Shown here: positions 1,510 to 15,895 of the stretch, piece after piece
Layout: the number at the start of each line of letters is the position of its first letter
Position numbering within the stretch: position 1 is the stretch's first letter
Assembly (NCBI GenBank): GCA_032249315.1
Contig: JAVVGB010000016.1
Location: forward strand, 1 to 21,553
Direction of reading: 5' to 3'
DNA: 21,553 bases
Source of the DNA: Thermoproteota archaeon
GTDB taxonomy: Archaea > Thermoproteota > Thermoprotei > Gearchaeales > Gearchaeaceae
Program-made: the position numbers and the translations under genes
The notes under the pieces: model-generated
What the model saw: only the letters and a program-made list of their open reading frames with translations
Databases searched by the model: none
What the model was told of the DNA's origin: nothing

Positions 1510-2424
1510 TTAATAATAAATTGTTAAATCACAAATATCAATGATTAAATTTAAAATATTTTTTAAGCTAAATAAAAATTCTGAAGGTATATCCTTTATT
1601 GAATTTAATCTATAAAACAGAAAGTTTATCCTTTCTTTTATTTCTTCAACACTTTTCTTATTTAAGAAACGAATTATTGCTCTTTCCTGAATTTCTTGTA
1701 TTTCTTCTGTAATTTTTTTCAATGTTTGCAATGTTCCTTTTCCTATTTTATTATTTAATAAATATTCAGCAATTTTTACACTCTCATCTCCTATTTTTTC
1801 AAGTATTAATCCTGCGATTCTTAAATCAAGACAATCAGTATAAGTTAAATTTAATTTATTAAGAATAGTTTCATTTTGCAATAAGCTTCTTATTTGTCTT
1901 ACCATAAGGAAATATAATCGATCAACCTCGTTATCTCTATCTATCACCTGTTTAATAAGTGTTTCATCTTCTTCATAAAAACCCTTAATAATTTCAACAT
2001 ACATTGTAGAAGTAATTGCATTAAGCCTTAATAAAAGCTTGATAGGATTTATTGAAGCATCGTTTATTAAATTATGAAGAGTAATAGAATTCATTGTTTC
2101 TTCAACGATTTCTAATCCAATTAAATTCTTTGCGGTGTTTAAAATTTTTTGTCTCTCTTCTTCAGTAAATTTTTGATCTGAAATAACATTAATTGTATGA
2201 TAGCCCAGTAAATAATAACTAAGAATTCTTCTATCTATATACTTATCAAATTTTATGTTTACAGTTTTCTCTTCTGGAAGCTTGTTAGAATAAATTAAAA
2301 TATTTCCATCATGCCTAATGGTTAGTAATATTTCTTCTCCTTTTTTTAGTTTATTCTCTTCAACCCATTTTGTAGGGATCGCTACATAATATGTATTACC
2401 TATTTTTTGCAGTTTTCTCAACAT
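1510..2424 (-). CDS. AbrB/SpoVT-domain plus PhoU-domain regulator (archaeal PhoU-like phosphate-uptake regulator homolog)
   Basis: The N-terminus KIGNTYYVAIPTKWVEENKLKKGEEILL is a swapped-hairpin AbrB/SpoVT DNA-binding motif. The C-terminal helical region carries the PhoU-type repeat signature (DRDNEVDRLYFLMVRQIR and a second helical repeat). No pst transporter genes are adjacent. Confidence 0.7.
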   Translation of the reverse strand: MLRKLQKIGNTYYVAIPTKWVEENKLKKGEEILLTIRHDGNILIYSNKLPEEKTVNIKFDKYIDRRILSYYLLGYHTINVISDQKFTEEERQKILNTAKNLIGLEIVEETMNSITLHNLINDASINPIKLLLRLNAITSTMYVEIIKGFYEEDETLIKQVIDRDNEVDRLYFLMVRQIRSLLQNETILNKLNLTYTDCLDLRIAGLILEKIGDESVKIAEYLLNNKIGKGTLQTLKKITEEIQEIQERAIIRFLNKKSVEEIKERINFLFYRLNSIKDIPSEFLFSLKNILNLIIDICDLTIYY

Positions 2425-2514
2425 ACATTTTAATTATTTAAAGTTTTTAATATGATTAAATCTCGAGTCATCAGATTAATTAATTAAATTAAACGTTGTC
2501 ATTGGAAGGTAATA

Positions 2515-2522
2515 TTTATAAA
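2515..2522 (+). promoter_or_regulatory. TATA-like box for xerA (leaderless or very short leader)
   Basis: TTTATAAA ends 24 nt upstream of the ATG at 2547, which is archaeal TATA spacing if transcription starts at or next to the start codon. Confidence 0.45.
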
Positions 2523-2546
2523 TTATAACTATTAAGTTTTTTTGCA

Positions 2547-3362
2547 ATGGAATTACCAGATTCAGCTTTAGAATTCCTTTTTACTTTAGTTGGTAAAAGT
2601 AAAAATACTAAAAAAGTTTACGAAACTATTCTAAGAAAATTCTTTAATTATGTTAATAAAACTGAAATAAACGAAATAGATGTAATAAAATTTCTTAATT
2701 TTCTTGAAAATAAAGGTTATAAAGTTTCTTCATTAAGAATTTATGCAATAGTTTTAAGAAGATATTTAAAATTTTTATCCAAAAATTATAAAAAAGTTGT
2801 TTTGCCTTCTTTAAGAAATGAGCAAAAGAATATATATATTAAAAAAGAAGACCTTAGACGATTTATTGAATCTTTTGAAGATGTAAGAGATAAATTATTA
2901 GTTAGGTTCATTTTATTAACTGGATGTCGTGTTGGAGAAGTTGCTAATTTACATATTGAAGATATAGATTTTGATAAAAGAATAATAAAAATTGTAGATC
3001 ATGGTAAATATGAAATTAAAAAACCTAGAATTATTCCTATAGATTCAGAAACATTAAAAATGTTAAAGGAATTTATTGGTGATCGAAAAAGCGGTCCTGT
3101 TTTTAATATAGGTCCAAGAGCTATTCAGAAAATAATTAAAAAAGGAGCATTAAAATCTGGAATTCCTTATGCTAATTTAATTACACCACATAAACTTAGA
3201 CATACGATGGCAATCTACTTTATAACAGAAGGAGGAGATATAAGGAGTTTACAAAGAATTTTAGGTCATAATAGTTTAAGAACAACTGAAATATATTTAG
3301 ACTATGATTTATCAGATTTAATTAAAGTTTATGATAGAGTAGCTGAAAGATTAAAATTTTGA
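2547..3362 (+). CDS. xerA: Tyrosine recombinase, XerA/XerC/XerD-like
   Basis: Complete catalytic signature: R in LTGCRVGEVANL, HxxR in HKLRHTMA, and H plus the nucleophilic Y in LGHNSLRTTEIYL. At 271 aa with an N-terminal SAM-like core-binding domain, it has the size typical of archaeal single-copy Xer rather than a viral integrase. Confidence 0.8.
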   Translation: MELPDSALEFLFTLVGKSKNTKKVYETILRKFFNYVNKTEINEIDVIKFLNFLENKGYKVSSLRIYAIVLRRYLKFLSKNYKKVVLPSLRNEQKNIYIKKEDLRRFIESFEDVRDKLLVRFILLTGCRVGEVANLHIEDIDFDKRIIKIVDHGKYEIKKPRIIPIDSETLKMLKEFIGDRKSGPVFNIGPRAIQKIIKKGALKSGIPYANLITPHKLRHTMAIYFITEGGDIRSLQRILGHNSLRTTEIYLDYDLSDLIKVYDRVAERLKF

Positions 3363-3410: not shown

Positions 3411-4436
3411 ATGGATAAATGGAGATTTCTTAGTGAAACAGGAGATGTCGGTTATTACTTAGCTGTTACAGAAGTGCTTTTAAGGAGTGTAGAAAATGAA
3501 AGATCTTTAAATACTGTAAGAGTATTTCAATGTAATCCTAATGCAGTAATAATAGGAATCCAACATGACCCTTCATATATTTTAAACATTCAAGCATTAA
3601 GAGAAATGCGTTTTAATATTGGTAGAAGATTGACCGGAGGGCCTCCTTTACTTTTTACCGATAAACAATTTGCAATTCAATTTTTTGTATTCGATGAAAG
3701 ACCTTCAAAGGATGAAATGAGAAGAAAATTAATAAACTCTTTTTTAAGAGCTTTAGAAGAACAAGGTATAAAGGCTTATTTTGAAGAGCCTTATAAGTTG
3801 CTTTACAATAAAAAAATGCTAGGATATGTAGATACAATGAGACTAAATCATTCCTTATGCTTAACTTTTTACATTAATGTTGAAAATGATGATGAATACA
3901 GAAAACGAATTTTCTCTGGATTAAATTATGTTCCTTCCATATTTAGTTTTACCACAAATATCAAAAATGAACTTGGGGAATTTTCTAAAACTTCTTTAAT
4001 AGAAGGAGTAAAATCACAGATTAAAAAGGATTTTAGTATTAATTTTACTAATTCAGCTTTAACTCCATATGAAAATCTTTTATTAAAGTCTCATGTTGAA
4101 AAACATACAATGAGTGAGTGGATATATGGTTATAGAAATGTAAGAAGCTTTCTTTCTGGAAATGTTAAGAGTGTAACTATAAATACAAAAGAAGGATATT
4201 TAACGGTAATAGCTTCATCTAACAGAGGATTAATTACGAATGTTTATATTACAGGTGATTTTTACATTTATCCTCCTGAAGCACTTAATGCACTTGAAAC
4301 TTCCTTGCAATTTGCTCCTGCAGATGATAAATATATTCAAGATTGTATAGAAAGATACATTAAACTTGGAAAAGTAAAGCTTTATGGGATAGATACCAAC
4401 GATTTAGTGGAAGGTATTAAGAGAGCTGTTATTTAA
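3411..4436 (+). CDS. Lipoate-protein ligase A family (BPL/LPL catalytic domain plus C-terminal domain), divergent
   Basis: Collinear with LplA: N-terminal RFL...YLAVTEVLL, VRVFQCNPNAVIIGIQHD, then RRLTGG and a candidate catalytic lysine in NKKMLGY. The 341 aa length matches two-domain LplA. The motifs are degenerate (see findings). Confidence 0.6.
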   Translation: MDKWRFLSETGDVGYYLAVTEVLLRSVENERSLNTVRVFQCNPNAVIIGIQHDPSYILNIQALREMRFNIGRRLTGGPPLLFTDKQFAIQFFVFDERPSKDEMRRKLINSFLRALEEQGIKAYFEEPYKLLYNKKMLGYVDTMRLNHSLCLTFYINVENDDEYRKRIFSGLNYVPSIFSFTTNIKNELGEFSKTSLIEGVKSQIKKDFSINFTNSALTPYENLLLKSHVEKHTMSEWIYGYRNVRSFLSGNVKSVTINTKEGYLTVIASSNRGLITNVYITGDFYIYPPEALNALETSLQFAPADDKYIQDCIERYIKLGKVKLYGIDTNDLVEGIKRAVI

Positions 4437-5121
4437 TAATTTCTGATAAATTTTTCGCAGTTTTTGTTGCTAATTCATGGGCTTTTAATAAAGGATAAAG
4501 ATAACAATTTTGAATGCATTTAAAAAATACTTTTATACAAGAATCTAAATCTATTAAATTTCCTACGCTAATATAGTAATCTTTATTGCAGACCTTAATT
4601 ACCTTTCCTAAAATTTCGTTTTCATGTGTAACATCTCCTAAATTTTCGTTAATCCATTTAATGTTTCCTATCAATTTCTTTTTAGCAACACCTACTGTGG
4701 GTTTTTCGATTAAATATCCTACATAGCATGCCAAACCTGCTTTATAAGGATGAAGTTTACCATGACCGTCTATTAAATAAACATCAGCGCGATATTTTGA
4801 CTCTTTAATTAATTTAACCATATGCGGGCCTTCTCTTAAAAATAATAAGGTAGGAATATAAGGAAAATTAACTGTATTTATTTTTACTTTCTCTTCTATT
4901 ATTTTATGATTAATTACATCGTAGGTTATCATTGCGGTTACTATTTTATTAGAAAAATAAGAACAATCCAAGGCAGCTACAGTTTGAAAATCCATCAATT
5001 TTTCTTCTTTAATCTTGGATGCAATGAATGTTTGAATCTCTCTTGCTTTTTTAATATCACTCTTGAATTTGTTAATTATTTCTTCTATATTCTCCAAATA
5101 TTCATGCGAAAATTCTTTCAT
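4429..5121 (-). CDS. nfi: Endonuclease V (deoxyinosine 3' endonuclease)
   Basis: Family motifs are present: VAALDCSY (catalytic Asp), FPYIPTLLFLREGP, YLIDGHGKLHPYKAGLACYVG and PTVGVAKKKL. Confidence 0.9.
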   Translation of the reverse strand: MKEFSHEYLENIEEIINKFKSDIKKAREIQTFIASKIKEEKLMDFQTVAALDCSYFSNKIVTAMITYDVINHKIIEEKVKINTVNFPYIPTLLFLREGPHMVKLIKESKYRADVYLIDGHGKLHPYKAGLACYVGYLIEKPTVGVAKKKLIGNIKWINENLGDVTHENEILGKVIKVCNKDYYISVGNLIDLDSCIKVFFKCIQNCYLYPLLKAHELATKTAKNLSEIIK

Positions 5122-5212
5122 TTGTATTTCAAAACTAATGTAGTTTAATTAAATAAAATAATTGATTGAATAATTAATTTAAAATAATTTGTTTTTCTTA
5201 CAGTAAATAGTT

Positions 5213-5224
5213 ATATTTTAAATA
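5213..5224 (+). promoter_or_regulatory. TATA-like box for the MBL-fold hydrolase gene
   Basis: ATATTTTAAATA is centred about 27 nt upstream of the ATG at 5246. Confidence 0.4.
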
Positions 5225-5245
5225 GTTTATCTTATTTTATTTGAT

Positions 5246-5863
5246 ATGGAAATCTTTAAACTTGTAGTACCACCTTTAGATAACAATGTATACGTAGTTT
5301 ATGATAAAGAAACAAAAGAAGGTTATATAATAGATGTTGGATTAGGAGCAAACGAATTGGCTTCCTATGTAAAATCTCATGAAATAAAAATCCTAGGAAT
5401 CTTATTAACTCATGCACATATAGACCATACTGCACATGCTTTTTTAGTAAAAAAGCTAATCGGTTCTAAAGTCATGATACATTATGAAGATTATAATTTA
5501 CTTAAGGAATTCTTTTCCAGAGACTATCCTTATATTGATGAAAAATTAGAATATGAAGAACCAGATTATTTGTTTAAAGATGGAGAAGAATTCAAATTTG
5601 GAAAGTATAGTTTAATTGTTATAGAAACACCGGGACATACACCTGGTTCTGTATGTTTTTATGAAAAAAATGAAAAAGTATTATTTTCAGGTGATACTTT
5701 ATTTGCTGGTACTTATGGAAGAGTAGATTTTCCTTACAGTGATGAAAATAAAATGATGGAAAGTTTAAGAAAACTTGCAAGATTACCTAAGGAAGTTAAA
5801 GTATATCCTGGTCATTATGAAGAAACTAAGATAGAATATGAATATTGGTTGCTAGAGATTTAA
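5246..5863 (+). CDS. Metallo-beta-lactamase fold hydrolase (glyoxalase II-like)
   Basis: Metal-binding motif THAHIDH, later TPGHTPGS, GDTLF and a terminal PGH. The 205 aa single domain is typical of hydroxyacylglutathione hydrolase-like MBLs. Confidence 0.85.
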   Translation: MEIFKLVVPPLDNNVYVVYDKETKEGYIIDVGLGANELASYVKSHEIKILGILLTHAHIDHTAHAFLVKKLIGSKVMIHYEDYNLLKEFFSRDYPYIDEKLEYEEPDYLFKDGEEFKFGKYSLIVIETPGHTPGSVCFYEKNEKVLFSGDTLFAGTYGRVDFPYSDENKMMESLRKLARLPKEVKVYPGHYEETKIEYEYWLLEI

Positions 5864-6257
5864 GATCTCTTCCAACATAGTATAAATGAGATTTGCATTT
5901 GCAATCACTGCATCCAAATCTATTTATATATTTGAACTTATTGTTATAAAGTGTATTTGATATATCACATTCATTTTTGTTTAATAATAAAATAAAACCT
6001 ATTATAATTATGTTTTTATTTATAATTAAATAATCTATATGCCAATGTTTTCTTTTTATTTTATTTAAATATCTTAAAATTCTTGATTTATATGTTTTCT
6101 TTGCAGAGCCTATATATAAATAGTAGCCTTTTTTAAAGGTAATTTCTCCTATTTTTCCTATATTAGCTTTAAATTTTTTCTTAATTTTTATAATTAAAAT
6201 GTATGATCCTTTTAATTTTAAAATATTATTAAAGTTATTTAAATAACCATTTTTCAT
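5826..6257 (-). CDS. DUF123 protein (GIY-YIG nuclease superfamily)
   Basis: Near-consensus DUF123 pattern: GSYILII...IGKIGEITFKKGYYLYIGSAKK...RILRYL...KHWHIDYL...FGCSDCKCKSHLYY. Confidence 0.8.
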   Translation of the reverse strand: MKNGYLNNFNNILKLKGSYILIIKIKKKFKANIGKIGEITFKKGYYLYIGSAKKTYKSRILRYLNKIKRKHWHIDYLIINKNIIIIGFILLLNKNECDISNTLYNNKFKYINRFGCSDCKCKSHLYYVGRDLKSLATNIHILS

Positions 6258-6993
6258 ATGGCATATTTAACTTACTTGCATCTTCATCTTCGTTTGTTAA
6301 TATATTTAATCCTCGAATTATTGCAACAGGTATTCCCTCATCTCCTTGTCCCATAATTAATTCAGCTGCAGAAGCCAATTCATCAGCTATAGCAATATTT
6401 TTTACTTGTAAAATATATCCTGATCTATCAGCTTTTCCTCTATAATCTTTAAAGATTTTAACTCCAGAGACTCCTATAGCTAAGTTTATTTGGCCTTCTC
6501 TTAAAGGTCTACCGTAAGTATCTGAAATTATTATGCCTACTTTTTTACCTGTTCTTTTTTCAATTTCATTTCTTATAATTCTTGCACTTTTATTAGGGTC
6601 TTCAGGTAATAAAGTAACATATTCTCCTCCTTTTACATTAGATCTATCTATACCTGCATTTGCGCAAACAATGCCATGTTTAGTTTCAACGATCAAATGT
6701 CCAGCTTTTGCTTTAACAATTCTCCTAGATTCTCTTAATACTAGCTCAACAAATCTTGGGTCTTTTTGAGTAATTTTAGATAATATTATGGCTTTTTGTG
6801 AAGGTATAACATTATTTAAATTAACTATTTTGCCTTCCCATTTTGAAATTATCTTTTGGGAAATAACAATAATATCATTATCTTGAAGTTCTATATTTTC
6901 AGATTTTATTCCGTCTAAAATTAGTCCTACAAGGTCATCGTTTTCTTTAATTTCTGGTAAACCTTCAATTCCTATAATTTCGACTTTTTTCAT
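6235..6993 (-). CDS. cofE: Coenzyme F420-0:L-glutamate ligase
   Basis: The N-terminus VEIIGIEGLPEIKENDDLVGLI...DIIVISQKIISKWEG and the internal GIVCANAGIDRSN and GIIISDTYGRPLREGQINLAIG match the CofE family. At about 250 aa it is a stand-alone form with no fused nitroreductase domain. Confidence 0.9.
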   Translation of the reverse strand: MKKVEIIGIEGLPEIKENDDLVGLILDGIKSENIELQDNDIIVISQKIISKWEGKIVNLNNVIPSQKAIILSKITQKDPRFVELVLRESRRIVKAKAGHLIVETKHGIVCANAGIDRSNVKGGEYVTLLPEDPNKSARIIRNEIEKRTGKKVGIIISDTYGRPLREGQINLAIGVSGVKIFKDYRGKADRSGYILQVKNIAIADELASAAELIMGQGDEGIPVAIIRGLNILTNEDEDASKLNMPYEKWLFK

Positions 6994-6996
6994 TTT

Positions 6997-7650
6997 TTAA
7001 TTATTTGCTAATTCTTTTATGTATTTAATGCTTTTTTTGTTGGAATTTAAAGTTTTAAAATATTTAAACCGAATAATATCATCTAAATCTAAACATATTC
7101 TTTCATTACTATAAATGGTTACGTTATAATTATTATCTAAGGCATTTTTCAAATGTAATAAAAAACTAGTTTTTCCTTCGCCAAATTCTAAATTAATTTT
7201 AACATAATTTCTAAGCATTAGAATATTTGTGCCTCCGTCACAAGAAGGTCCTAATATAATTTCATAGTTTTCTATAAGTTTTCCCAGATTACTAATGTCT
7301 ATAGGTTCGATTAAAGGTAAATCTGAAGGAATTACTAGTGTAGCATCGTTTTCTTCTTTTCTCAAATAGTCTAATGCAAATTCTAAAGCTTTATTTAATT
7401 CTTCTTTATTAATCAAAATTTCAATTTCTTTATATTTTTTAAATTCGCTTAAATCATCATAGCTTACTAGATATATTTTATTTATCGATTGAGATGAAAT
7501 ACAGCTCTCTAATATATCTTCAAGCATTAACAAAGTAAGGGTTATTCGAGAATTTTCATCTAAATATTTTATTAATCTACTTTTTGTCTCATTTAACTTT
7601 TTTATAGGAATTAAGATGTTAATTTTCATTTTATCATGTTCTCTCCACAT
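6997..7650 (-). CDS. cofC: 2-phospho-L-lactate (or PEP) guanylyltransferase
   Basis: KINILIPIKKLNETKSRLIKYLDENSRITLTLLMLEDIL is the CofC/FbiD N-terminal nucleotidyltransferase motif, and about 210 aa is the expected size. The second Met (MKINILIPIK, position 7629) may be the real start. That would leave a 4-nt gap after the upstream stop instead of a 17-nt overlap. Confidence 0.85.
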   Translation of the reverse strand: MWREHDKMKINILIPIKKLNETKSRLIKYLDENSRITLTLLMLEDILESCISSQSINKIYLVSYDDLSEFKKYKEIEILINKEELNKALEFALDYLRKEENDATLVIPSDLPLIEPIDISNLGKLIENYEIILGPSCDGGTNILMLRNYVKINLEFGEGKTSFLLHLKNALDNNYNVTIYSNERICLDLDDIIRFKYFKTLNSNKKSIKYIKELANN

Positions 7651-8395
7651 TAAAGTGTTCTATTATTGTTTTTAATTTGTTTACATCTTCTATAGCTAGC
7701 CTTCCTATTGATATATAGTCGCTACCTCTCCTTAAAAATAAGTTAGCTGTGTCAATATCACGAATGGAATTTCCGCCTATTATGGTAATATCTTTGTTTT
7801 GATTCCTTATTCTTTCTATGACATTTATATCAGGTAAATTTAAATAAGGATGCATAGCATCTATATGAAATATTTTTACCCCAATTTCTTTGAATAATTT
7901 AACTAATCTGAGTTCATTAGTAACATTGGCTCTAAATTTGATAATTAAAGGAATATTAACTTTGTCTAAATGTTTTTCCAGCCAGTCTAATAATAATGCA
8001 GGATAAAATGCAAAATATTGCCCCCCTCCCCTTAAAATTATCTCGGGCTGTCTACAATGAAGATTTAATTCAATAATATCTCCATATTTATTAGATATCT
8101 CAATTGCTCTTAATAATCCTTCTTCTGTAGCAAATCTTGCGTTTATTATAACAGGGGCTAAACCTTCTATTATCTTTACCTCATTCTCTATATATTCTTC
8201 TAATTTATTCAGCTCTATTACAAATTCTTTTCTTCCTCTTTTAACCATTAACATAGAAGCTTCCATTGTTTCTCTATCAAAATCTATTCCTCCTAAGGTA
8301 ACAGCTCCTGCACCTAATTCTGCAACCTTTCTACAGAATTTTCCATCTGTTATCCCTCCTAACGCAGCCAATATAACCTTGTTTTTTAATCTCAT
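7634..8395 (-). CDS. Dus/dihydroorotate-dehydrogenase-like FMN TIM-barrel oxidoreductase, barrel only (function unassigned)
   Basis: Collinear with the Dus family: VILAALGGITDGKFCRKV (cf. LAPMAGvTD..FR), IIELNLHCRQPE (cf. iDiNmGCP, Cys retained), PLIIKFRAN (cf. PvtvKiR), and IIGGNSIRD...ISIGRLAIED (cf. NGdI...vMiGRgal.nP). At only 253 aa there is no C-terminal helical tRNA-binding domain. Confidence 0.6.
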   Translation of the reverse strand: MRLKNKVILAALGGITDGKFCRKVAELGAGAVTLGGIDFDRETMEASMLMVKRGRKEFVIELNKLEEYIENEVKIIEGLAPVIINARFATEEGLLRAIEISNKYGDIIELNLHCRQPEIILRGGGQYFAFYPALLLDWLEKHLDKVNIPLIIKFRANVTNELRLVKLFKEIGVKIFHIDAMHPYLNLPDINVIERIRNQNKDITIIGGNSIRDIDTANLFLRRGSDYISIGRLAIEDVNKLKTIIEHFNVERT

Positions 8396-9318
8396 TATTT
8401 ATAATAATGTTCTATGATAAATTTAGCTAATCTTATTCTATCTTCTTGGGTTTTTAATGAAATATTAGTTTTAACTAACTCCATATTTAATTTTTCAAGT
8501 CTCTCATCGTCTTCTTTTTCATCTACAATAAAAACATCTATAATATCTTCGTAAAGTTTTGCTACTTGATATGCGCTAACCTCTAAACCTAAACTTTCCA
8601 TTAATTTAGCAGCAGGGCCGCTGAAAGGTGAACCTTTAACAATGGGACTTACAGCAATTTTTTTAGCTTCACTGCTAATTATTATGTTTCGCATTTTAGG
8701 TAAGCTTAATATTGGATTAATGCTTGTAATAGGATTGCTAGGTCCAATAATTATTAATTTAGACTTTAATATTGCTTCTATTGCCTCGTTAGAAATGTTT
8801 GCATTTTCAATATTTTCAAATATGACTGATTTTATTGGCATATTGCCTCTATGCAAAACCCAAAATTCTTGAAAATGTCTTTTTTTAATGCCATCAAATA
8901 TGTATGTAGTAACTTTATCATTTGTCATAGGAATTATTTTGCAATCTATGTTAAGTTTTTCACATAAGAACTTTGTAACTTCTGTTAATTTCATTCCAGA
9001 TTTTAATAAATTAGTTCTTAAAACATGTATGGCTAAGTCCCTATCACCAATATGAAACCATGAATAGGTAGGAACAATTTTAGTTATCATTTCATGAAAG
9101 TTAAAAGTATCATTTTTTATTCCCCATCCTCTTTCTTCATCAAAAATTCCAGCTAAAGTATACATAACTGAGTCAACATCAGGACTTATATGCAATCCGT
9201 AAATTTCTATATCATCTGCAGTATTAACAATTACATTTATTTCTCTTTGAGGAATAACTTTAGCTAAACCATCTATTAGTTTTCTTGACCCAGTACCACC
9301 ACTTAGTACGGTTAGCAA
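8395..9318 (-). CDS. cofD: 2-phospho-L-lactate transferase (LPPG:FO transferase)
   Basis: The N-terminal LTVLSGGTGSRKLIDGL glycine loop, NTADD and IIGPSNPITSINPIL match CofD/FbiA. The start is a TTG at 9318-9316, and no in-frame ATG was found in the 43 nt upstream. Confidence 0.9.
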   Translation of the reverse strand: MLTVLSGGTGSRKLIDGLAKVIPQREINVIVNTADDIEIYGLHISPDVDSVMYTLAGIFDEERGWGIKNDTFNFHEMITKIVPTYSWFHIGDRDLAIHVLRTNLLKSGMKLTEVTKFLCEKLNIDCKIIPMTNDKVTTYIFDGIKKRHFQEFWVLHRGNMPIKSVIFENIENANISNEAIEAILKSKLIIIGPSNPITSINPILSLPKMRNIIISSEAKKIAVSPIVKGSPFSGPAAKLMESLGLEVSAYQVAKLYEDIIDVFIVDEKEDDERLEKLNMELVKTNISLKTQEDRIRLAKFIIEHYYK

Positions 9319-9361
9319 TTTCTTATTATTTTTATATTTTATAACCTTAAGAATATTTAAT
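9319..9361. promoter_or_regulatory. 43-bp bidirectional promoter region between cofD (-) and the rhomboid gene (+)
   Basis: This is the whole intergenic space, and it is almost pure A/T. The element TTTTATATTTTATAA (9329-9343) lies about 20-30 nt from both divergent start codons. Confidence 0.4.
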
Positions 9362-10039
9362 ATGTTAAGTGGAAGAGGATTTTTAAGTAGTCATACAAAT
9401 AAGCTTATTTTAGCTAATGTTTTGGTGTTTATTTTTATAATAGTTACATACAATCTTATATCTGTTTATTTTGGCAAAAGACTCTATTATGCAACTTCTC
9501 CTTTAGATATAATTACAGGAAGAAGCATGTCTGGGCTACAATTCCTTCTTTCCCAAGTAAATTATCTCGTTATTAATGGTTTTGTATGGCAGTTGTTTAC
9601 TTCAATGTTTATTCATATAGGTATAATTCATTTAACGTTTAACATGCTCGCACTTTACATTTTTGGGAACATGGTAGAGAATGGATATGGCAAAAGGAAT
9701 TTTTTACTAATATATTTTATCTCAGGATTTTCTGGAAATATAGCTACTTTATTTCTTCTTAAATATCTTCAACCTATGGGTGATTTTATTCCTTCTGCAG
9801 GTGCTTCAGGAGCTATTTTTGGTTTAATAGGAGCTTATGCTATGCTAGGAAGATTAAGCGGAAGTTTCGCTGCAGGATTATCTTATGCTATAATTATTTT
9901 CCTTTTTTCTTCATTATTTCCTGGTGTAAATATTTTTGCTCATCTCTTTGGTTTATTAGGAGGATTAATTGTAGCTTTTTTCTTAACTAGAAAATTAAGA
10001 AAGCATGAAGAAATTATTTACGCTATTGATTATTATTAG
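9362..10039 (+). CDS. Rhomboid family intramembrane serine protease
   Basis: WQLFTSMFIHIGIIHLTFNMLALYIFG, the catalytic Ser in GASGAIFGLIGA, and the catalytic His in AHLFGLLGG. The protein is polytopic. Confidence 0.9.
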   Translation: MLSGRGFLSSHTNKLILANVLVFIFIIVTYNLISVYFGKRLYYATSPLDIITGRSMSGLQFLLSQVNYLVINGFVWQLFTSMFIHIGIIHLTFNMLALYIFGNMVENGYGKRNFLLIYFISGFSGNIATLFLLKYLQPMGDFIPSAGASGAIFGLIGAYAMLGRLSGSFAAGLSYAIIIFLFSSLFPGVNIFAHLFGLLGGLIVAFFLTRKLRKHEEIIYAIDYY

Positions 10040-10955
10040 CATATTTTAAAAAAGATACCATACATTTTAATATAACATAAGCAGCAAATTTTGAAGAATA
10101 TCCTTCATCAAGTATAGGATTTATCTCTACGATATCAATTACTTTAACGTTTTTAATTTTTAGAAGTTCATAAAGTAAATTTATTACCTCATGAGGATAT
10201 AATCCATTAAAACTTAAAGAGTTAACACCTTTTATGTAATGCGCATCAATAACATCGAAATCTATGCTTATATATAGTGATTTCACATCTTCAAAAAATT
10301 CTTTAATTTCTTTTACTACATTTCTTTCCCTTATTTCTTCTACGATGTAGAATTTAATTTTCTCCTTTGCTTTAAGAGCATAATATTTAGAATTGTAAAA
10401 ATCCCTTATTCCTAATTGTGCGACTTTTATATTGTTAACTTTGTCCATTATTTTTCTTAAGAATGAACCGCTTGTATCATAATTTTCTTTTGTTTCTCTT
10501 ATATCGTGATGAGCATCGAAAATTAGTAAGCCTAGCGGGCCTTCTTTAATGTATTCTTTTAATGACAAAAAACTTGGAAATGATATACTATGATCTCCTC
10601 CCAATAATATAGCTAATTTCGATTTTTTGTAGATTTCGTAAGTAGCATTAAATATATGATTAATAGTAAATTCATGGTCTGTATGAGAAACATTAATATC
10701 ACCAAAATCGCATATTTTAAATGAAGCTAAATCTAAATTTTCATAATACGAATATGTATTTAAACTATAAAGATATTCTCTAATGTATTTTGGTGCATAT
10801 CTTGCCCCTGGTCTTCCAAAAGTTAAAGAATCGTAAGGCACGCCTAAAATTGCTACATCGCAATCTTCTCTTGATTTTCTAATTATATGTTTAATTTTTA
10901 TTTCATTTTCATCTATTTTTGATATATCATATACTGGTTCAATAAATACATCCAT
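10023..10955 (-). CDS. speB: Arginase/agmatinase-family ureohydrolase (agmatinase-like)
   Basis: Mn-binding motifs GGDHSISFP, DAHHDIR and SIDFDVID are present. The substrate-loop region after the last motif is divergent, so assigning agmatine as the substrate is tentative. Confidence 0.7.
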   Translation of the reverse strand: MDVFIEPVYDISKIDENEIKIKHIIRKSREDCDVAILGVPYDSLTFGRPGARYAPKYIREYLYSLNTYSYYENLDLASFKICDFGDINVSHTDHEFTINHIFNATYEIYKKSKLAILLGGDHSISFPSFLSLKEYIKEGPLGLLIFDAHHDIRETKENYDTSGSFLRKIMDKVNNIKVAQLGIRDFYNSKYYALKAKEKIKFYIVEEIRERNVVKEIKEFFEDVKSLYISIDFDVIDAHYIKGVNSLSFNGLYPHEVINLLYELLKIKNVKVIDIVEINPILDEGYSSKFAAYVILKCMVSFLKYANNNQ

Positions 10956-10999
10956 AAAATTATTTCTTTTTGAAACTTATAACTCCTAAAGCTTGAAAA

Positions 11000-11251
11000 T
11001 TAGCTTGAATCTAACTCTTTTTCCATATCTTCTTTAATTTTAATAATTTTTTCATAAAGTATATTAAGCATTAGTTCACTTGAAAGAGGAGGCTCTACAC
11101 GATCAACGTTTTCTATAAATCTATGAATATCTTCTATTTCTTTTGATACTGTTTTACCATTTTTTGATAAAACAAGAACCAAAGTTCCTTTAGGTGTTAA
11201 ATAAACTTTATCAAAACCAAATATTTCTTCTAAAAACTTTAACTCTTGCAT
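11000..11251 (-). CDS. Hypothetical small protein (83 aa)
   Basis: An ATG-initiated ORF lies 4 nt downstream of the frhB-like stop on the same strand, and its codon and amino-acid usage match the neighbouring genes. I recognise no motif. Confidence 0.45.
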   Translation of the reverse strand: MQELKFLEEIFGFDKVYLTPKGTLVLVLSKNGKTVSKEIEDIHRFIENVDRVEPPLSSELMLNILYEKIIKIKEDMEKELDSS

Positions 11252-11255
11252 TATA

Positions 11256-12326
11256 TTACTGCATTAGTTTGCTAAGCTGGAAAGAATGCCCTCTAAATTT
11301 TTGTTCAATTGCTCTTTTTGCAACAAATTTAACCTTTGGTTTCTCAGTGCTTTTTACTATTTTACCCGCTCTTAAAGCACTTTCGATTAACTGTTTTCCA
11401 ACTTGAGATCTAATTATTGCAAAATTCCATCCATCCGGTGCACCATTTGCACCTAAGGATATATCACTAGCTTCAGCTGTAAAATCTCTGCAAACATAAC
11501 ATGAGCCAAAAACAGCTTCTTCTAATTCATCAATATGAATTTTTTTCACTTCACCATTTTTCAACCTAAATATTACATTCCTTTTTACAAGAATGTTATT
11601 AACATCCTTAGGTTCAATGTTTAGTTTTTCCTTTGCTATTCTAAAGAATTCTTCTCTTCTCCACGTTTTTGAACAAAATAATCCTAATGTTAAAGCTACT
11701 TTTCCTTTAAATTTTGGAACTCTTTCTGTTAATTTTGCAGCTGCAGTTTGGCATCCTGTTCCTACAATAGCTATTTTATTTAATCTTAATTTATCTATAG
11801 CAGTTCTTAAAGGAGTTACCATTGGAACATGCCAATATATTGTTTGTGAATATTTCCTTAATTCTTTAGGATCTGTTACAATTACTGCTTTAGCATACCA
11901 TTCTTCATCTTTTGTAGCTACTATTGCACCATCAATTAAGCCTATTTCAAAAGCATGTTCTAATAATGCAGTTGTAACACCACCATCTGTTGCATTTTTC
12001 CAAAGTTCATGTTCAGCAGCTTTATATATACCATATTCAATGTAATCACCTAGAGGTTTATCTATGGGAGCTTCGTAAGGATTTACCACAGGACATGCTA
12101 ATGGACAAAGTTGACATAAAATACATACACCTATTAACTGAGCTCCTTCAGAACTTCTTTCATCTACTTCTAATACTTGAGGCGGACATACTGCAACACA
12201 ACCGCCACATAAGCAACATAGATCAGGTTTTACAACAAAAGCTGCTAGATCCCCAAATGTCAATATTTTAGTAGTTGATAAATTAGGTCTATAAATATCA
12301 GGTGAACGTATTTCTACTTTTGACAT
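11256..12326 (-). CDS. Coenzyme F420 hydrogenase/dehydrogenase beta-subunit family protein (FrhB/FdhB-like) with an N-terminal 2x[4Fe-4S] ferredoxin domain
   Basis: Two ferredoxin Cys clusters (CCLCGGCVAVCP and CILCQLCPLACP) are followed by the FrhB_FdhB N-domain motif ATDGGVTTALLEHAFEIGLIDGAIV. The C-domain motifs are IVGTGCQ, LGLFCS and CYVCRDFTAEASDISLG. Confidence 0.8.
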   Translation of the reverse strand: MSKVEIRSPDIYRPNLSTTKILTFGDLAAFVVKPDLCCLCGGCVAVCPPQVLEVDERSSEGAQLIGVCILCQLCPLACPVVNPYEAPIDKPLGDYIEYGIYKAAEHELWKNATDGGVTTALLEHAFEIGLIDGAIVATKDEEWYAKAVIVTDPKELRKYSQTIYWHVPMVTPLRTAIDKLRLNKIAIVGTGCQTAAAKLTERVPKFKGKVALTLGLFCSKTWRREEFFRIAKEKLNIEPKDVNNILVKRNVIFRLKNGEVKKIHIDELEEAVFGSCYVCRDFTAEASDISLGANGAPDGWNFAIIRSQVGKQLIESALRAGKIVKSTEKPKVKFVAKRAIEQKFRGHSFQLSKLMQ

Positions 12327-12366
12327 ACAATTTCTTCTTCTTTCAAAGAACTTATAAGTTTATCTC

Positions 12367-12393
12367 TTATATAAATTAAAAAAATTTATATAA
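12367..12393. promoter_or_regulatory. Mirrored TATA boxes (11-5-11 perfect inverted repeat) between the frhB-like gene (-) and pckG (+)
   Basis: TTATATAAATT aaaaa AATTTATATAA. The right arm is 27-37 nt upstream of the pckG ATG (12420). The left arm is 41-51 nt upstream of the frhB-like ATG (12326). Confidence 0.45.
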
Positions 12394-12419
12394 TATAAAA
12401 TAATTTTATTTTTCATTCA

Positions 12420-14183
12420 ATGGCAGTAATTCTTGAAGAAGCGAAGGGATTAAATAAAGAATTAATAAAATGGGTTAAAGAAGTTGCTGAAATTACCGAA
12501 CCTGATGAAATATTAATTTGTGATGGTTCGGATGAGGAATTTAATTATTTGATTAATATTTTGTTAAAGGAAGGAAGTTTAATAAAGTTAAACGAAGAAA
12601 AATATCCAGGATGTTATCTTTACAGAAGTGCTCCTTTTGATGTAGCTAGAACCGAAGAAGCTACTTATATATGTACTAAAAAGAAAGAAGAAGCTGGTCC
12701 AAACAATAATTGGATGGAACCAAATGAAGCAAAAAGTAAGCTGTTTAAATTGTTAAAAGGTTGCATGAGAGGAAGAAAAATGTTTGTTGTACCTTACATC
12801 TTAGGTCCTGTTTCATCAAAATATTCACAAATAGGTGTTGAAATAACCGATAGTCCTTATGTTGTAATAAATTTGAGATTCTTAACAAGGATGGGTAAAA
12901 TAGCTTTGGAAAAAATAAATGAAACAAACAATTTTGTAAAAGGAATTCATTCTATGGGCAATTTAGATCCTAAAAATAAATACATATGCCATTTTCCTGA
13001 AGAAATGCTAATAATAAGCATAAATTCAAATTATGGAGGAAATTCTTTATTAAGTAAAAAATGTCATTCATTAAGGTTGGCAAGCTTTCAAGCAAGGAAA
13101 GAAAAATGGATGGCTGAGCATATGCTTGTAATAGGATTGGAAAATCCTGAAGGAGAAATAATATATATTACTGCAGCATTTCCTAGTGCAAGCGGAAAAA
13201 CAAACTTAGCAACTTTATCTCCTTCAGGTAAATATTCAGATTGGAAAATATGGTTAATAAGTGATGATATAGCTTGGATGTATGTTGGTAATGATGGAAG
13301 ACTTTATGCAATAAATCCTGAATATGGTTTCTTTGGTGTAGTTGTTGGTATAAATGAAAAAGTAACACCAAATTTAATGAAAACTATAAGTAAAAATACG
13401 ATATTTACAAATGTTGCGCTAACTAAAGATTTAACTCCTTGGTGGGAAGGTCTTGGAGAATATCCAGAGGAATTATTAGATTGGCAAGGTAAACCGTGGA
13501 AAAAGGGAAAGCCTGCTGCTCATCCAAATTCAAGATTTACAACATATTTAAAGCAATATCCTTATATTTCACCTTACTTTGAAGATCCAAACGGTGTTCC
13601 GGTATCTGTTATACTTTTTGGAGGAAGAAGAAGTAAAACTATTCCTTTAGTATTTGAAACTTTTAGCTGGGAACATGGTGTTTTAGCTGGTGCTATGATG
13701 CGTGTTGAAACTACAGCTGCTGCTGAAGGTGAAGTTGGAAGATTGAGAAATGACCCTATGGCAATGTTGCCTTTCTGTGGCTATAATATAGGAGATTATT
13801 TTGCTCATTGGCTAGAAATGGGTGAAAGAATCAAACATAAACCAAGAATTTTCTATGTTAATTGGTTTAGAAAAAATGAAAAAGGTAAATTCATTTGGCC
13901 AGGTTTTAATGAAAATATTAGAGTTTTAAAATGGATATGGGATAGGATAAAAGGAAAAGTTGGCGCTGAAAAAACACCTATTGGATATATTCCAAGGAAG
14001 GAAGATTTTGATTTTGAAGGTTTAAATCTTAAAGATGAAGATATTAATGAGTTATTTAAAATAGATAAAAATGAATGGATAAAAGAATTTATGGAAGCGA
14101 AAAAGTTTTTTGAAAAATTCGGTAATAGATTTCCTAAAAAATTATGGGATATATTCTACGAAATATTGGAAAATCTTAAATGA
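12420..14183 (+). CDS. pckG: Phosphoenolpyruvate carboxykinase (GTP)
   Basis: GTP-PEPCK hallmarks across the full length: GPNNNW, the P-loop AAFPSASGKTNLA, DDIAWM, NPEYGFFGV, HPNSRFT, LFGGRR and VNWFRK. Length is 587 aa. Confidence 0.92.
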   Translation: MAVILEEAKGLNKELIKWVKEVAEITEPDEILICDGSDEEFNYLINILLKEGSLIKLNEEKYPGCYLYRSAPFDVARTEEATYICTKKKEEAGPNNNWMEPNEAKSKLFKLLKGCMRGRKMFVVPYILGPVSSKYSQIGVEITDSPYVVINLRFLTRMGKIALEKINETNNFVKGIHSMGNLDPKNKYICHFPEEMLIISINSNYGGNSLLSKKCHSLRLASFQARKEKWMAEHMLVIGLENPEGEIIYITAAFPSASGKTNLATLSPSGKYSDWKIWLISDDIAWMYVGNDGRLYAINPEYGFFGVVVGINEKVTPNLMKTISKNTIFTNVALTKDLTPWWEGLGEYPEELLDWQGKPWKKGKPAAHPNSRFTTYLKQYPYISPYFEDPNGVPVSVILFGGRRSKTIPLVFETFSWEHGVLAGAMMRVETTAAAEGEVGRLRNDPMAMLPFCGYNIGDYFAHWLEMGERIKHKPRIFYVNWFRKNEKGKFIWPGFNENIRVLKWIWDRIKGKVGAEKTPIGYIPRKEDFDFEGLNLKDEDINELFKIDKNEWIKEFMEAKKFFEKFGNRFPKKLWDIFYEILENLK

Positions 14184-14683
14184 AAATAGAAAATCTTGTA
14201 GATTTTTTGCTAGAAGTTTATAAATTAAAAGAAATAAAGAGAAAAGGTTGGATAGTTAAAGTAAACATTAACGAAGCTGAAAGTGTTGCAAGCCATACTT
14301 TTGGAATGTTACTTTTAGCTTCGATAATCTATAACAAGTCTGATTTAATGAAGAATATATCTTTGCACGATATTGCTGAGATAAAGATAGGAGATTTGCT
14401 TCCAGAGGAAAAAGATAAAGAACTGGAGAAAAAAGTGTATGAAGAGATTGTTAAAAATGTAGCAAAAGATTGGAATTTACCTAAGAGTTTAGATGAAATA
14501 TTTAGATTAGAGAAAATTAAGGAACTAGATAGATTAGATATGGCTTTGCAAGCTCTTTATTATAAAGAAAAAGGCTATCCTAAAGAAAAGCTCAGAGAGT
14601 TTATTGTTTCAGCAGAAAAGGAAATCAAAAGTAAGGAGTTAAAAGAGATATTAGAAGAAATAAAGAAAAGATTTGAGAAATAA
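14180..14683 (+). CDS. HD-domain phosphohydrolase (YfbR/HDDC2-like 5'-deoxynucleotidase family)
   Basis: LKEIKRKGW, ESVASHTFGMLLLA and LHDIAEIKIGDL supply the H...HD...D metal ligands of the YfbR-like HD family. The start ATG overlaps the pckG stop (ATGA). Confidence 0.75.
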   Translation: MKIENLVDFLLEVYKLKEIKRKGWIVKVNINEAESVASHTFGMLLLASIIYNKSDLMKNISLHDIAEIKIGDLLPEEKDKELEKKVYEEIVKNVAKDWNLPKSLDEIFRLEKIKELDRLDMALQALYYKEKGYPKEKLREFIVSAEKEIKSKELKEILEEIKKRFEK

Positions 14684-14688
14684 ATTTC

Positions 14689-15302: not shown

Positions 15303-15343
15303 ATTTAAAAGAATTACACTTCTTCTTGCGGATTTATTTTAGG

Positions 15344-15407
15344 CTGAATCTGAATTTTTAGGAATAAATTTAAGAAATTGTTTCATAAAATTGAATTTGA
15401 ATTTTCA
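15344..15407 (+). repeat. Two 17-nt direct repeats, each a TGAAT-N-TGAAT doublet, upstream of osmC
   Basis: cTGAATcTGAATTTTta (15344-15360) and tTGAATtTGAATTTTca (15391-15407) match at 14 of 17 positions and start 47 bp apart. The second copy abuts the putative osmC TATA box. Confidence 0.4.
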
Positions 15408-15409
15408 TG

Positions 15410-15420
15410 TTTTTATTTAA
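15410..15420 (+). promoter_or_regulatory. TATA-like box for osmC
   Basis: TTTTTATTTAA is centred about 25 nt upstream of the ATG at 15440. Confidence 0.4.
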
Positions 15421-15439
15421 TATTAATTAAATCTTAAGT

Positions 15440-15832: not shown

Positions 15833-15895
15833 TTAAAAGTTAAGTTAAAAAATTACTTTTTCAAAAATATTAATTCTATTTCGTAATAATCTTTC

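Follow-up and report, generated by a model that had tools for sequence, protein, structure and literature searches.

A cof operon lies on the reverse strand of the window, the 21,553-nt stretch of Thermoproteota DNA (contig JAVVGB010000016.1) that was analysed here, and encloses between cofD and cofC a gene, called X below, for a predicted flavoenzyme. The gene order in this window is cofD-X-cofC-cofE, and the locus comprises the following features:

9319..9361, no strand: 43-bp intergenic spacer separating cofD from a divergent rhomboid gene, the sole space for an operon promoter.
8395..9318, minus strand: cofD (2-phospho-L-lactate transferase), the operon's first gene, with a TTG start; TIGR01819 353 bits, Pfam CofD 180 bits.
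8393..8397, minus strand: TAATG junction, a translational coupling in which base 8395 is common to the stop of cofD and the start of X.
7634..8395, minus strand: X, a 253-aa barrel-only predicted flavoenzyme of the MJ0144/'archaeal Dus' family; TIGR00736 177 bits.
8222..8239, minus strand: RGRKEF, residues 53-58 of X, within a 25-residue insertion missing from canonical Dus (tRNA-dihydrouridine synthase).
8048..8065, minus strand: NLHCRQ motif, residues 111-116 of X; the Cys114 codon (8054-8056) corresponds to the catalytic Cys in the NxGCP of Dus.
7931..7945, minus strand: IIKFR, residues 151-155 of X, a KxR motif common to Dus; aligns to LKIR of DusB.
6997..7629, minus strand: cofC (guanylyltransferase), with its ATG 4 nt beyond the stop of X; TIGR03552 124 bits.
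6235..6993, minus strand: cofE (F420-0:gamma-glutamyl ligase), stand-alone, 252 aa; TIGR01916 285 bits.
5826..6257, minus strand: DUF123 gene, the block's last co-directional gene, with a 23-nt overlap with the cofE end; Pfam DUF123 86 bits.

The alignment shows a conserved LSGGTG motif near the N-terminus of CofD, and the cofD stop shares one base with the ATG start codon of X, as had been claimed in the initial annotation and as can be read from the sequence (AAATAATGAGA). For the other end of X, that annotation had left two options, a stop either 4 nt before or 17 nt inside cofC. The stop codon TGA of X occupies 7634-7636, and cofC could begin at the ATG at 7629 or at an alternative upstream ATG at 7650, which gives the 17-nt overlap; the Pfam match in the longer cofC frame begins only at residue 11. 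A close relative from the same lineage (L005) lacks a start codon for the longer version, so the start 4 nt after X is the real one and the overlapping version falls away. In the cofE product, Pfam F420_ligase (residues 12-228 of 252) is the sole domain, and the nitroreductase domain is missing as originally read. The DUF123 gene was found in this position elsewhere only in L005. Upstream of the operon, an A/T box at 9331-9344 lies ~22 nt before the cofD start, which is weak evidence at 27% GC, and a scan of the operon for bacterial-type promoters and terminators, which is not applicable to archaea, gave counts equal to those of shuffled sequence.

Among other features sought in the window, tRNA genes, a CitG-like gene, DUF447 and a Cys-rich module were all absent. 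A radical-SAM gene at 17116-18741 was considered as CofG/CofH and set aside as being of the B12/MiaB-like type, not Fo synthase. The GTP-PEPCK gene at 12420-14183 was likewise rejected as a functional neighbour: it accompanies X in the same-lineage L005 and at none of the remaining loci, and its proximity is therefore the coincidence that had been suspected from the start.

By our own arithmetic, the chance of a 253-codon open frame at 27% GC is ~2e-10. X is under purifying selection, with a dN/dS of 0.11 against its L005 counterpart. All five motifs quoted for it initially are present in the translation: LAALGGITD (9-17), ELNLHCRQPE (109-118), IIKFR (151-155), IIGGNS (205-210) and IGRLAIED (230-237). 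The AlphaFold model (pLDDT 94.7) shows one (beta/alpha)8 barrel and one terminal helix, with no extra domain. Foldseek places Dus structures on top (3b0p/3b0v, 6ei9, 4bf9), sharing this barrel with X, followed by DHODB, DPD and DHODH, so that class 1 DHOD and the FMN domains of DPD (5ksw, 5ue9, 1ep3, 1gth) form a second tier. Profile scores agree: Pfam Dus reaches 26 bits on X, above its cutoff of 20.4, and DHO_dh (16.5 bits, cutoff 27), TIGR01037 (32 bits, cutoff 270) and IMPDH all stay under their curated cutoffs. When aligned to canonical Dus by hhalign (probability 100), residues 1-250 of X match Dus 1-228 of 307, and therefore the C-terminal helical tRNA-binding domain of Dus is absent from X, which ends at residue 253. 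The claim of a Dus/DHOD-class barrel that retains the Cys and lacks the tRNA-binding domain is thus borne out by Pfam/NCBIfam, AlphaFold, Foldseek and hhalign alike.

Judged by its sequence, X belongs to an already named family, MJ0144/TIGR00736 (NCBIfam TIGR00736; UniProt Q57608; Kasprzak et al. 2012), which work on dihydrouridine calls 'archaeal Dus'. TIGR00736 matches X nearly end to end (X 13-239 to model 2-228 of 231; 177 bits, E 4e-52). This full-length score is under the curated cutoff of 218.7, and X therefore represents a divergent clade of the family. Like other members, which are archaeal, barrel-only and 240-270 aa long, X has NxHC[RK]Q, HxD and RGRxEF. All 15 residues that are invariant across 38 family members are found in X, as are all positions conserved in >=90% of members, bar N208, which is Gly in X; as a result, X reads GGNS where 37/37 of the other aligned members read GNNS. 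Invariance across these 38 diverse members extends to N111, H113, C114 and Q116 of the Cys motif and to K153 and R155 of KxR, and R53, R55, E57 and F58 of the insertion are each kept in >=90%. Identity to X is 33-40% for the aligned methanogen members and 41-45% for the Asgard members. An exhaustive HMMER search yielded 58 family clusters (50% identity) at E <= 1e-30, and M. jannaschii (MJ0144), M. thermautotrophicus, M. maripaludis and Haloferax volcanii all have members. The initial annotation did not recognise this named family.

The family departs from canonical Dus in several motifs, of which NxHC and the replacement of HxR by HxD have already been described for 'archaeal Dus', classed as the eighth Dus subfamily (PMC3674756; PMC9775027 for the classification). 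X keeps both the NxGCP Cys and the KxR motif of Dus. HVDAM, however, replaces the HxR found after strand 6, with the Dus His corresponding to D179 and the Dus Arg to M181 (hhalign), and across the family VNVR stands for VQxFG, HCRQ for GCP, HVDAM for VHgRT and GNNS for GNGD. Conserved residues that are new relative to Dus include R87, H113, R115 (R/K in the family signature), Q116 and the RGRxEF insertion, for which hhalign places the gap at ~ residues 45-69. In some methanogens, X is moreover fused to, or lies beside, a module with eight invariant Cys (the 'long form'). In a structure model of the long form, the barrel is good and the Cys-rich part, built on a 3-sequence alignment, has pLDDT <50. 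Such a module fits a dedicated electron input, unlike RNA binding. TIGR00736 is still a hypothetical equivalog in NCBIfam (June 2026), and our literature search found neither an experiment on the MJ0144/'archaeal Dus' family nor a paper linking it to F420.

Unlike bacterial and eukaryotic Dus (DusA/B/C, Dus1-4; PF01207), this family sits in cof operons. Searching from X, cofD was directly upstream, or separated by arfA (GTP cyclohydrolase III) only, in 55/95 loci, made up of 48 of 84 loci and 7 of 11 more diverse ones, the latter all with cofD directly upstream; arfA intervenes at 40 loci. The linked lineages are Asgard groups, Halobacteria, Methanobacteriales, Methanococcales, Hydrothermarchaeota and the present Thermoproteota lineage. 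Gene orders vary among them: cofE-cofD-X-cofC in Asgard archaea including Baldrarchaeia and in Thermoproteota S9B3, cofD-X-cofC in Heimdall, cofE-cofD-arfA-X in Methanobacteriales, cofD-arfA-X in Methanococcales, cofE-cofD-X in Hydrothermarchaeota, and cofD-X-CitG-DUF447 in Halobacteria. Where cofD and X are directly adjacent, their spacing runs from -14 to +53 nt and is often a 1-nt overlap, the same as here in L005, L085, L086, L087, L094 and L095. The initial annotation had counted a lack of conserved cof linkage in other genomes against its reading; synteny of orthologues with cof genes was found in no fewer than six deep lineages of Archaea, and linkage is therefore conserved. Its wording that X is 'locked' into the cof operon was too strong: X is coupled to cofD here, but a syntenic sister lineage (L097) has cofD-cofC-cofE without X. 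Furthermore, cof genes are missing from the neighbourhood of ~40% of X loci (Methanosarcinales, Methanocellales, Methanopyri, L091-L093), and searching from cofD, X was adjacent in 5/80 loci, or in 4/24 where cofC or cofE was also adjacent. X is also found near arfA, a CitG-like/DUF447 pair and fpo, so other associations are possible.

Among 34 tabulated archaeal genomes, those with the family are all F420 producers, and no member occurs in Pyrococcus, Thermococcus, Picrophilus, DPANN or Crenarchaeota (PMC9775027 Table S1). Thaumarchaeota and Methanospirillum make F420, yet they are scored as lacking it in the same table; zeros there call for some caution, since the long form is present in Methanosarcina and Methanocella, both scored 0, but with Thaumarchaeota scored without the family, X cannot be the universal archaeal solution. 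Lokiarchaeum GC14_75 also lacks the family (PMC9775027 Table S1) and carries a CofE:NTR fusion of the FbiB type (PMC6450877). This genome is the one data point for the expected anti-correlation with FbiB-type nitroreductases; at cofD loci without X, no nitroreductase-fold protein was found among the ten commonest neighbour families, so this part of the initial proposal depends on Lokiarchaeum.

Why would such a gene accompany the cof genes? The proposed source of 2-phospho-L-lactate (2-PL) in Archaea, the lactate kinase 'CofB', has been sought since 2001, and the step has been missing for 20 years: the kinase was never identified, and an archaeal 'CofX' has been postulated (PMC6450877; PMC8498797). 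Earlier cell-extract work, as relayed in these two papers, attributed 2-PL to GTP-dependent lactate phosphorylation. 2-PL is the specific substrate of cognate archaeal CofC/CofD pairs (PMC8764529), and MjCofC with MjCofD produced only dehydro-F420-0 in yeast (PMC10949242). In bacteria, FbiB's C-terminal domain and the stand-alone nitroreductases of Thermomicrobia use FMNH2 to reduce the enolpyruvyl C=C in dehydro-F420-0 (PMC6450877). The FbiB domain and X are both genetically attached to F420 tail-building genes. The former has a nitroreductase fold and the latter is a TIM barrel that may act one step earlier, on PEP; since the folds are unrelated, X would be a non-homologous analogue.

We propose that X is an FMN-dependent C=C reductase in the F420 side-chain branch, which would turn the PEP-derived enolpyruvyl group into a saturated L-lactyl group. 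That X reduces this double bond, on either PEP or dehydro-F420-0, seems to us somewhat more probable than the opposite, and X is the best candidate so far for the missing step of F420 synthesis. As to the substrate, free PEP is slightly favoured, though tentatively; X would then supply 2-phospho-L-lactate for CofC and stand in for 'CofB', and to our knowledge no enzyme is known to reduce free PEP. A little further down the scale of plausibility, X may act on dehydro-F420-0 from CofC and CofD and be the 'CofX', an archaeal dehydro-F420-0 reductase, that Bashiri et al. postulated in 2019. The hedged reductase reading of the initial annotation is supported by sequence comparisons, structure models and synteny, and every part of it that could be tested computationally held.

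In Dus, FMNH2 gives a hydride to a C=C beside a carbonyl, with the proton coming from Cys, and in DHOD and DPD the catalytic Cys is located in the loop after strand 4. By analogy with these enzymes, the FMNH2 hydride in X would go to the terminal methylene carbon (C3), and Cys114, in the loop after strand 4, would protonate C2. The carboxylate and phosphate might be held by a group of invariant Arg/Lys residues, R87, R115, K153, R155 and R232, together with R53 and R55 of the RGRxEF insertion. FMN binding and the electron donor, like the substrate and the individual residue roles, are what we infer for X. DHODB and DPD take electrons through Fe-S clusters, and by comparison the Cys-rich module of some methanogen X proteins could serve as an Fe-S-like electron input. 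The feasibility of the chemistry is suggested, by analogy only, by MurB (UDP-N-acetylenolpyruvoylglucosamine reductase), a flavoenzyme that turns an enolpyruvyl into a lactyl group, and by ComA (phosphosulfolactate synthase), a methanogen TIM barrel in which attack of a nucleophile on C3 of PEP yields a 2-phospho-lactate derivative. Neither matched X in Pfam/NCBIfam scans or among the 50 best Foldseek PDB matches.

Other enzyme identities were considered for X and rejected. It is not 'CofB' itself, the hypothetical L-lactate kinase, having no kinase or GTP-using phosphotransferase fold: Pfam and NCBIfam gave no kinase or P-loop match, and only FMN-barrel families matched. X may nevertheless be a functional, non-kinase replacement for CofB. 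Class 1 dihydroorotate dehydrogenase was dismissed on the sub-cutoff DHO_dh and TIGR01037 scores, and no pyr genes lie near X. An FbiB-type nitroreductase is not a TIM barrel, and its domain is found in neither X nor cofE. Finally, alpha-hydroxy-acid oxidase/dehydrogenase as the closest fold was discarded with none among the best 50 structural matches.

Among explanations that do not involve the side chain, the one that survives best, improbable as we hold it to be, is another step in deazaflavin, flavin or pterin cofactor synthesis, for example in the riboflavin/Fo precursor branch near ArfA or in common with the CitG-like/DUF447 pair, with the cofD link reflecting a mixed cofactor gene cluster. 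The 40 loci with arfA between cofD and X speak for it, as do Methanococcales contigs that show only arfA beside X (e.g. L064), the CitG-like/DUF447 pair that follows X in Halobacteria, Hydrothermarchaeota, Methanocellales and Methanosarcinaceae, a locus with this pair directly after cofD and without X (L165), and the haem and sirohaem genes downstream in Methanobacteriales. A riboflavin step, however, would be expected in F420-less archaea too, and Pyrococcus, Thermococcus and Crenarchaeota do not have the family. Halobacteria use folate rather than methanopterin, and cofD-X in these organisms argues against a methanopterin role. E. coli with the Fo synthase FbiC makes Fo, and no extra redox enzyme is known to be needed there. 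In addition, Asgard archaea and this window have X between cofD and cofC, with arfA, CitG and DUF447 not nearby.

Less probable still is that X is an RNA (tRNA) dihydrouridine synthase as annotated, perhaps with F420H2 rather than NADPH as reductant, which would explain why X is limited to F420 producers and lies near cof genes. Homology to Dus, the retained catalytic Cys and KxR, and the classification as the eighth Dus subfamily (PMC3674756; PMC9775027) agree with this, and in most archaea the family is the sole member of the Dus family. Against it stand the missing tRNA-binding helical domain and the replacement of HxR and of the strand 3 Gln. The family is also present in the hyperthermophiles Methanocaldococcus, Methanotorris and Methanopyrus, though dihydrouridine is scarce or missing in hyperthermophilic archaea (PMC7668247), a general statement for which we found no organism-by-organism data in the archaeal dihydrouridine literature. 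In many lineages the start codon moreover overlaps the stop of cofD inside a biosynthetic operon, an arrangement typical of enzymes of the pathway rather than of those that use the cofactor, and the literature search gave no experiment on this subfamily. Very unlikely, finally, is an unrelated small-molecule flavin oxidoreductase (e.g. acting on a pyrimidine or 2-hydroxy acid) in a functionally meaningless neighbourhood, which the ~40% of X loci without cof neighbours, the X-less operon of L097 and the weak DHOD and IMPDH matches would allow, but against which stand the recurrent cofD-X adjacency in varied gene orders in Halobacteria, Asgard archaea and Methanobacteriales, the overlapping start and stop codons, the confinement to F420 producers and the DHO_dh and IMPDH scores under curated cutoffs.

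F420 is central to methanogenesis, anaerobic methane oxidation and many reductive biocatalytic reactions, and the reductase proposed here for its side chain is a concrete, easily cloned candidate that is present in model organisms. If the proposal is true, the archaeal F420 pathway would be complete, and an all-archaeal gene set could be used to make F420, not dehydro-F420, in other hosts. X would then be the non-homologous counterpart of the nitroreductase domain of bacterial FbiB, and many archaeal 'tRNA-dihydrouridine synthase' entries (hundreds in the searches here) would need re-annotation. A PEP reductase would moreover represent a reaction without a known enzyme and supply the substitute for CofB. 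In its boldest form, which we put forward as a possibility short of an even chance, 'archaeal Dus' would be a PEP reductase that makes 2-phospho-L-lactate and does not modify RNA, and most Archaea would then be without a genuine dihydrouridine synthase.

The cof genes of the window form a minus-strand block of five head-to-tail genes, in which neighbours overlap or have at most 4 nt between them:

8395-9318, minus strand, cofD (profile match)
7634-8395, minus strand, X, a 253-aa barrel-only putative flavoenzyme resembling tRNA-dihydrouridine synthases (Dus) (ORF and profile match)
6997-7629, minus strand, cofC (profile match)
6235-6993, minus strand, cofE, 252 aa, with the ligase domain only in Pfam
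5826-6257, minus strand, a DUF123 gene sharing 23 nt with the cofE end, the last of the co-directional block

One base belongs to both the stop of cofD and the start of X (TAATG), the cofC ATG lies 4 nt past the X stop, and promoter space for the operon is limited to the 43-bp intergenic region upstream of cofD. The initial annotation described the locus correctly in every checkable detail. Of its two X-cofC junctions, the 4-nt gap is upheld over the 17-nt overlap, because the upstream ATG of the longer cofC is not conserved in L005, the closest public relative of the window (MAG 'Thermoproteota archaeon PSS.bin.9'; L-numbers denote fetched genomic loci). L096, a 283-kb JGI metagenome contig, is as close to the window as L005, with a CofD 99% identical. 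The dN/dS against L005 is 0.11 for X, 0.10 for cofE and 0.15 for cofC; X is therefore under purifying selection at a level similar to cofE and cofC. The DUF123 gene after cofE is confined to the window lineage (window and L005).

The window has a GC content of ~27%, and its DNA identity to L005 over 3844-16424 is a mosaic of 100% blocks alternating with 86-93% blocks (protein identity 99% for cofD, 92% for X and 86% for cofC), a pattern suggestive of recombination at the strain level or of an assembly that is a chimera of co-existing strains. A second F420-related locus, between the cof operon and PEPCK, consists of a gene at 11256-12326 (minus strand) for a FrhB/FpoF-like protein of the F420-binding-subunit family, with 4Fe-4S ferredoxin matches (Pfam Fer4 families) below cutoffs at its N-terminus, followed by an 83-aa ORF (11000-11251, minus strand) without a family match. 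Elsewhere (1510-3362), a gene with PhoU and MazE-like domains lies beside a XerC/D-type tyrosine recombinase gene (2547-3362).

In Pfam, X matches Dus and His_biosynth, both weakly. In NCBIfam it matches TIGR00736 over its full length (177 bits, under the curated cutoff of 218.7; E 4e-52), a family titled 'MJ0144 family RNA dihydrouridine synthase-like protein' and still a hypothetical equivalog. Its AlphaFold model, from an 18-sequence alignment, is one (beta/alpha)8 barrel (pLDDT 94.7), with T. thermophilus Dus and E. coli DusB and DusC as best PDB neighbours, followed by DHODB, DPD and human DHODH; the PDB holds no X-family structure, the top sequence match being DusB (62 bits). An exhaustive HMMER search delimits a compact family of 58 clusters (50% identity) at E <= 1e-30, with members of 240-270 aa matched in a single stretch; beneath it, scores fall to ~100 bits, where canonical Dus (300-330 aa) start. 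The family is already known and named: Kasprzak et al. made this very group their eighth Dus subfamily, 'archaeal Dus', with the signatures NxHC[KR] for NxGCP and HxD for HxR (PMC3674756), and later work took Q57608 (MJ0144) as its representative (PMC9775027). No experiments on MJ0144 or this family were found in the literature searched.

Profile-profile alignment of the X family with 52 canonical Dus proteins places X 1-250 on Dus 1-228 of 307, leaving X without the helical tRNA-binding domain. Together with the profile search and the model, this bears out the predicted FMN-type barrel lacking that domain. Both groups share the strand-1 (A/P)M(A/G)G motif, the Cys (C114), KxR (K153, R155) and the strand-8 Arg (R232), whereas X has VNVR for VQxFG, HCRQ for GCP, HVDAM for VHgRT and, across its family, GNNS for GNGD, as well as a 25-residue insertion with RGRxEF that canonical Dus lack. 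Among 38 family members, from Halobacteria to Asgard archaea, G14, G35, R87, E109, N111, H113, C114, Q116, G125, K153, R155, D179, N209, S229 and R232 are invariant, and R53, R55, E57, F58, N85, R115, E118 and H177 are conserved in at least 90%; nearly all conserved residues lie at or directly past the C-terminal strand ends of the model. Alignment and model suggest that the hydride- and proton-transfer machinery is kept and that the substrate pocket has been rebuilt into a strongly cationic one, which would suit a small polyanionic substrate.

A one-genome-per-species scan found at least 583 genomes with X relatives, of which the best 80 were taken and combined with four loci obtained earlier (n=84). 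cofD adjoins X, directly or across arfA (GTP cyclohydrolase III), in 48 of these 84 loci; arfA adjoins X in 40 and sits between cofD and X wherever the contig includes cofD; 38 loci have cofE close by and 8 have cofC. In eleven further contexts, all of divergent members, a cofD-X pair occurs seven times (three Halobacteria genera, Heimdallarchaeum with a complete genome, Baldrarchaeia and two uncultured lineages) and X is unlinked four times. The proposed synteny with cof genes thus holds in several gene orders, with cofC (cofD-X-cofC-cofE, cofE-cofD-X-cofC, cofD-X-cofC) or without it (cofE-cofD-arfA-X, cofD-arfA-X, cofE-cofD-X, cofD-X-CitG-DUF447), and since the surrounding order varies among lineages, the cofD-X pairing is not one inherited block. 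When the two are directly adjacent, their spacing is -14 to +53 nt, with the 1-nt overlap recurring in the window, L005, three Halobacteria, L094 and L095. X was never found beside cofC without cofD among the X loci examined. One family member, P0136 (L093:221-1270), carries a C-terminal gamma-glutamyl cyclotransferase-like (GGACT/AIG2) fusion, which may be a further hint of an F420 link because F420 has a gamma-glutamyl tail.

Searching from cofD, X was directly downstream in 5 of 80 archaeal metagenome loci, chosen by similarity to the window CofD and seen as contig neighbourhoods with the rest of the genome out of view; it was present in 4 of the 24 with adjacent cofC or cofE. In the closest distinct lineage, L097/L098 (CofD 66-67% identical to the window's), L097:4001-6308 reads cofD-cofC-cofE with nothing between cofD and cofC, flanked by rhomboid and arginase genes as in the window, so at this position either the window lineage acquired X or the L097/L098 lineage lost it. 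X lies apart from cof genes in Methanosarcinales, Methanocellales and Methanoperedens; in Methanoperedens and relatives it is divergent from an fpo/nuo-type F420H2 dehydrogenase operon (FpoA, B, C, D, H and I homologues; about 7300-8000 in L018, L024, L028, L039, L044-L047, L052, L054, L073 and L079).

X of these same three groups has a C-terminal extension of ~120 aa with eight invariant Cys in two C...CC-x5-C units, matching no Pfam family (fused form at L079:7938-9098, L061:7905-9098 and L081:7965-9104). The module is also a separate ORF (L060:8744-9238, L015:10508-10984), of 158-164 aa with a UBA-like tail directly after X in Hydrothermarchaeota and ~1.8 kb downstream of X in Methanobacteriales; it is absent from the window. 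It may provide Fe-S electron input to X in the lineages carrying it. A CitG-like (triphosphoribosyl-dephospho-CoA synthase family) and DUF447 gene pair lies after cofD-X in both Halobacteria and Hydrothermarchaeota, after X in both Methanocellales and Methanosarcinaceae, and, in L165, directly after cofD without X (L085:6732-8152, L086:6774-8242, L060, L062:2399-4167, L165:4325-5776); the pair may itself be F420-related. The Methanobacteriales cluster is of mixed cofactor content (cofE, cofD, arfA, X, an ABC-type ATPase, the Cys-rich ORF, a sirohaem-type NAD-binding protein and hemA, glutamyl-tRNA reductase) and is conserved in L015:5390-12882 and ~30 other Methanobacteriales loci.

Among 34 archaeal genomes in a published table of MJ0144 orthologues, Pyrococcus, Thermococcus, Picrophilus, Aciduliprofundum, DPANN and Crenarchaeota are groups not known to make F420. 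All of them are scored absent, and Archaeoglobus, four haloarchaea, Methanopyrus and Methanothermobacter, all F420 producers, are scored present; Methanocaldococcus, the query, reads 0 in its own row (PMC9775027 Table S1). The F420 makers Cenarchaeum, Nitrosopumilus, Methanospirillum, Methanosarcina and Methanocella are also scored absent there, and since Methanosarcina and Methanocella carry the long form of X despite this score, the zeros are not fully reliable. X holders make up part, but not all, of the F420 producers. Lokiarchaeum GC14_75, scored absent (PMC9775027 Table S1), is the one archaeon with an FbiB-like CofE:nitroreductase fusion (Bashiri et al., PMC6450877), a single data point that agrees with the predicted anti-correlation.

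The classical archaeal F420 route requires 2-phospho-L-lactate (2-PL); CofB, the lactate kinase proposed for this route, has yet to be found (PMC8498797, PMC6450877). Bacteria start from PEP, and the resulting dehydro-F420-0 is reduced by the FbiB nitroreductase domain; Bashiri et al. postulated an archaeal reductase, 'CofX', and confined their search to nitroreductase folds near cofE (PMC6450877). Yeast expressing MjCofC and MjCofD made dehydro-F420-0 only (PMC10949242), so the archaeal pair needs one further activity for the natural cofactor. The cofD-coupled flavoenzyme, from a class that reduces C=C bonds adjacent to a carbonyl or carboxylate, would fit this need, and the balance leans slightly towards X acting on one of PEP and dehydro-F420-0. 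Singly, conversion of PEP to 2-PL is a tentative reading, favoured by the high specificity for 2-PL that cognate archaeal CofC/CofD pairs show (Hasan et al., PMC8764529, who note that CofC assays alone cannot distinguish the physiological substrate), the compact barrel, in which six Arg are conserved (four of them counted as invariant) along with one invariant Lys, and the fact that in Asgard archaea and the window X sits between cofD and cofC. Reduction of dehydro-F420-0, itself somewhat doubtful, is favoured by the bacterial precedent, the yeast result, and the fact that linked X follows cofD even with cofC elsewhere, as genes for consecutive steps tend to neighbour.

A different role in cofactor biosynthesis, linked to arfA or the CitG-like/DUF447 pair that accompany X in many loci, is unlikely, as the family is absent from riboflavin-making archaea without F420 and the Asgard and window operons contain cof genes only. 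A genuine RNA dihydrouridine synthase, perhaps F420H2-dependent, would fit the shared barrel motifs but is improbable given the missing tRNA-binding domain, the altered Dus motifs, and the presence of family members in hyperthermophiles, a group in which dihydrouridine is rare or absent (PMC7668247). The recurrent cofD-X pairing and the restriction to F420 producers make it very improbable that X is an unrelated flavoenzyme carried along in the operon. Action on PEP or dehydro-F420-0, the function put forward in the initial annotation, thus finds support at the level of comparative genomics; what is new for this already named family is the proposed function, which would be an archaeal solution non-homologous to the bacterial one.
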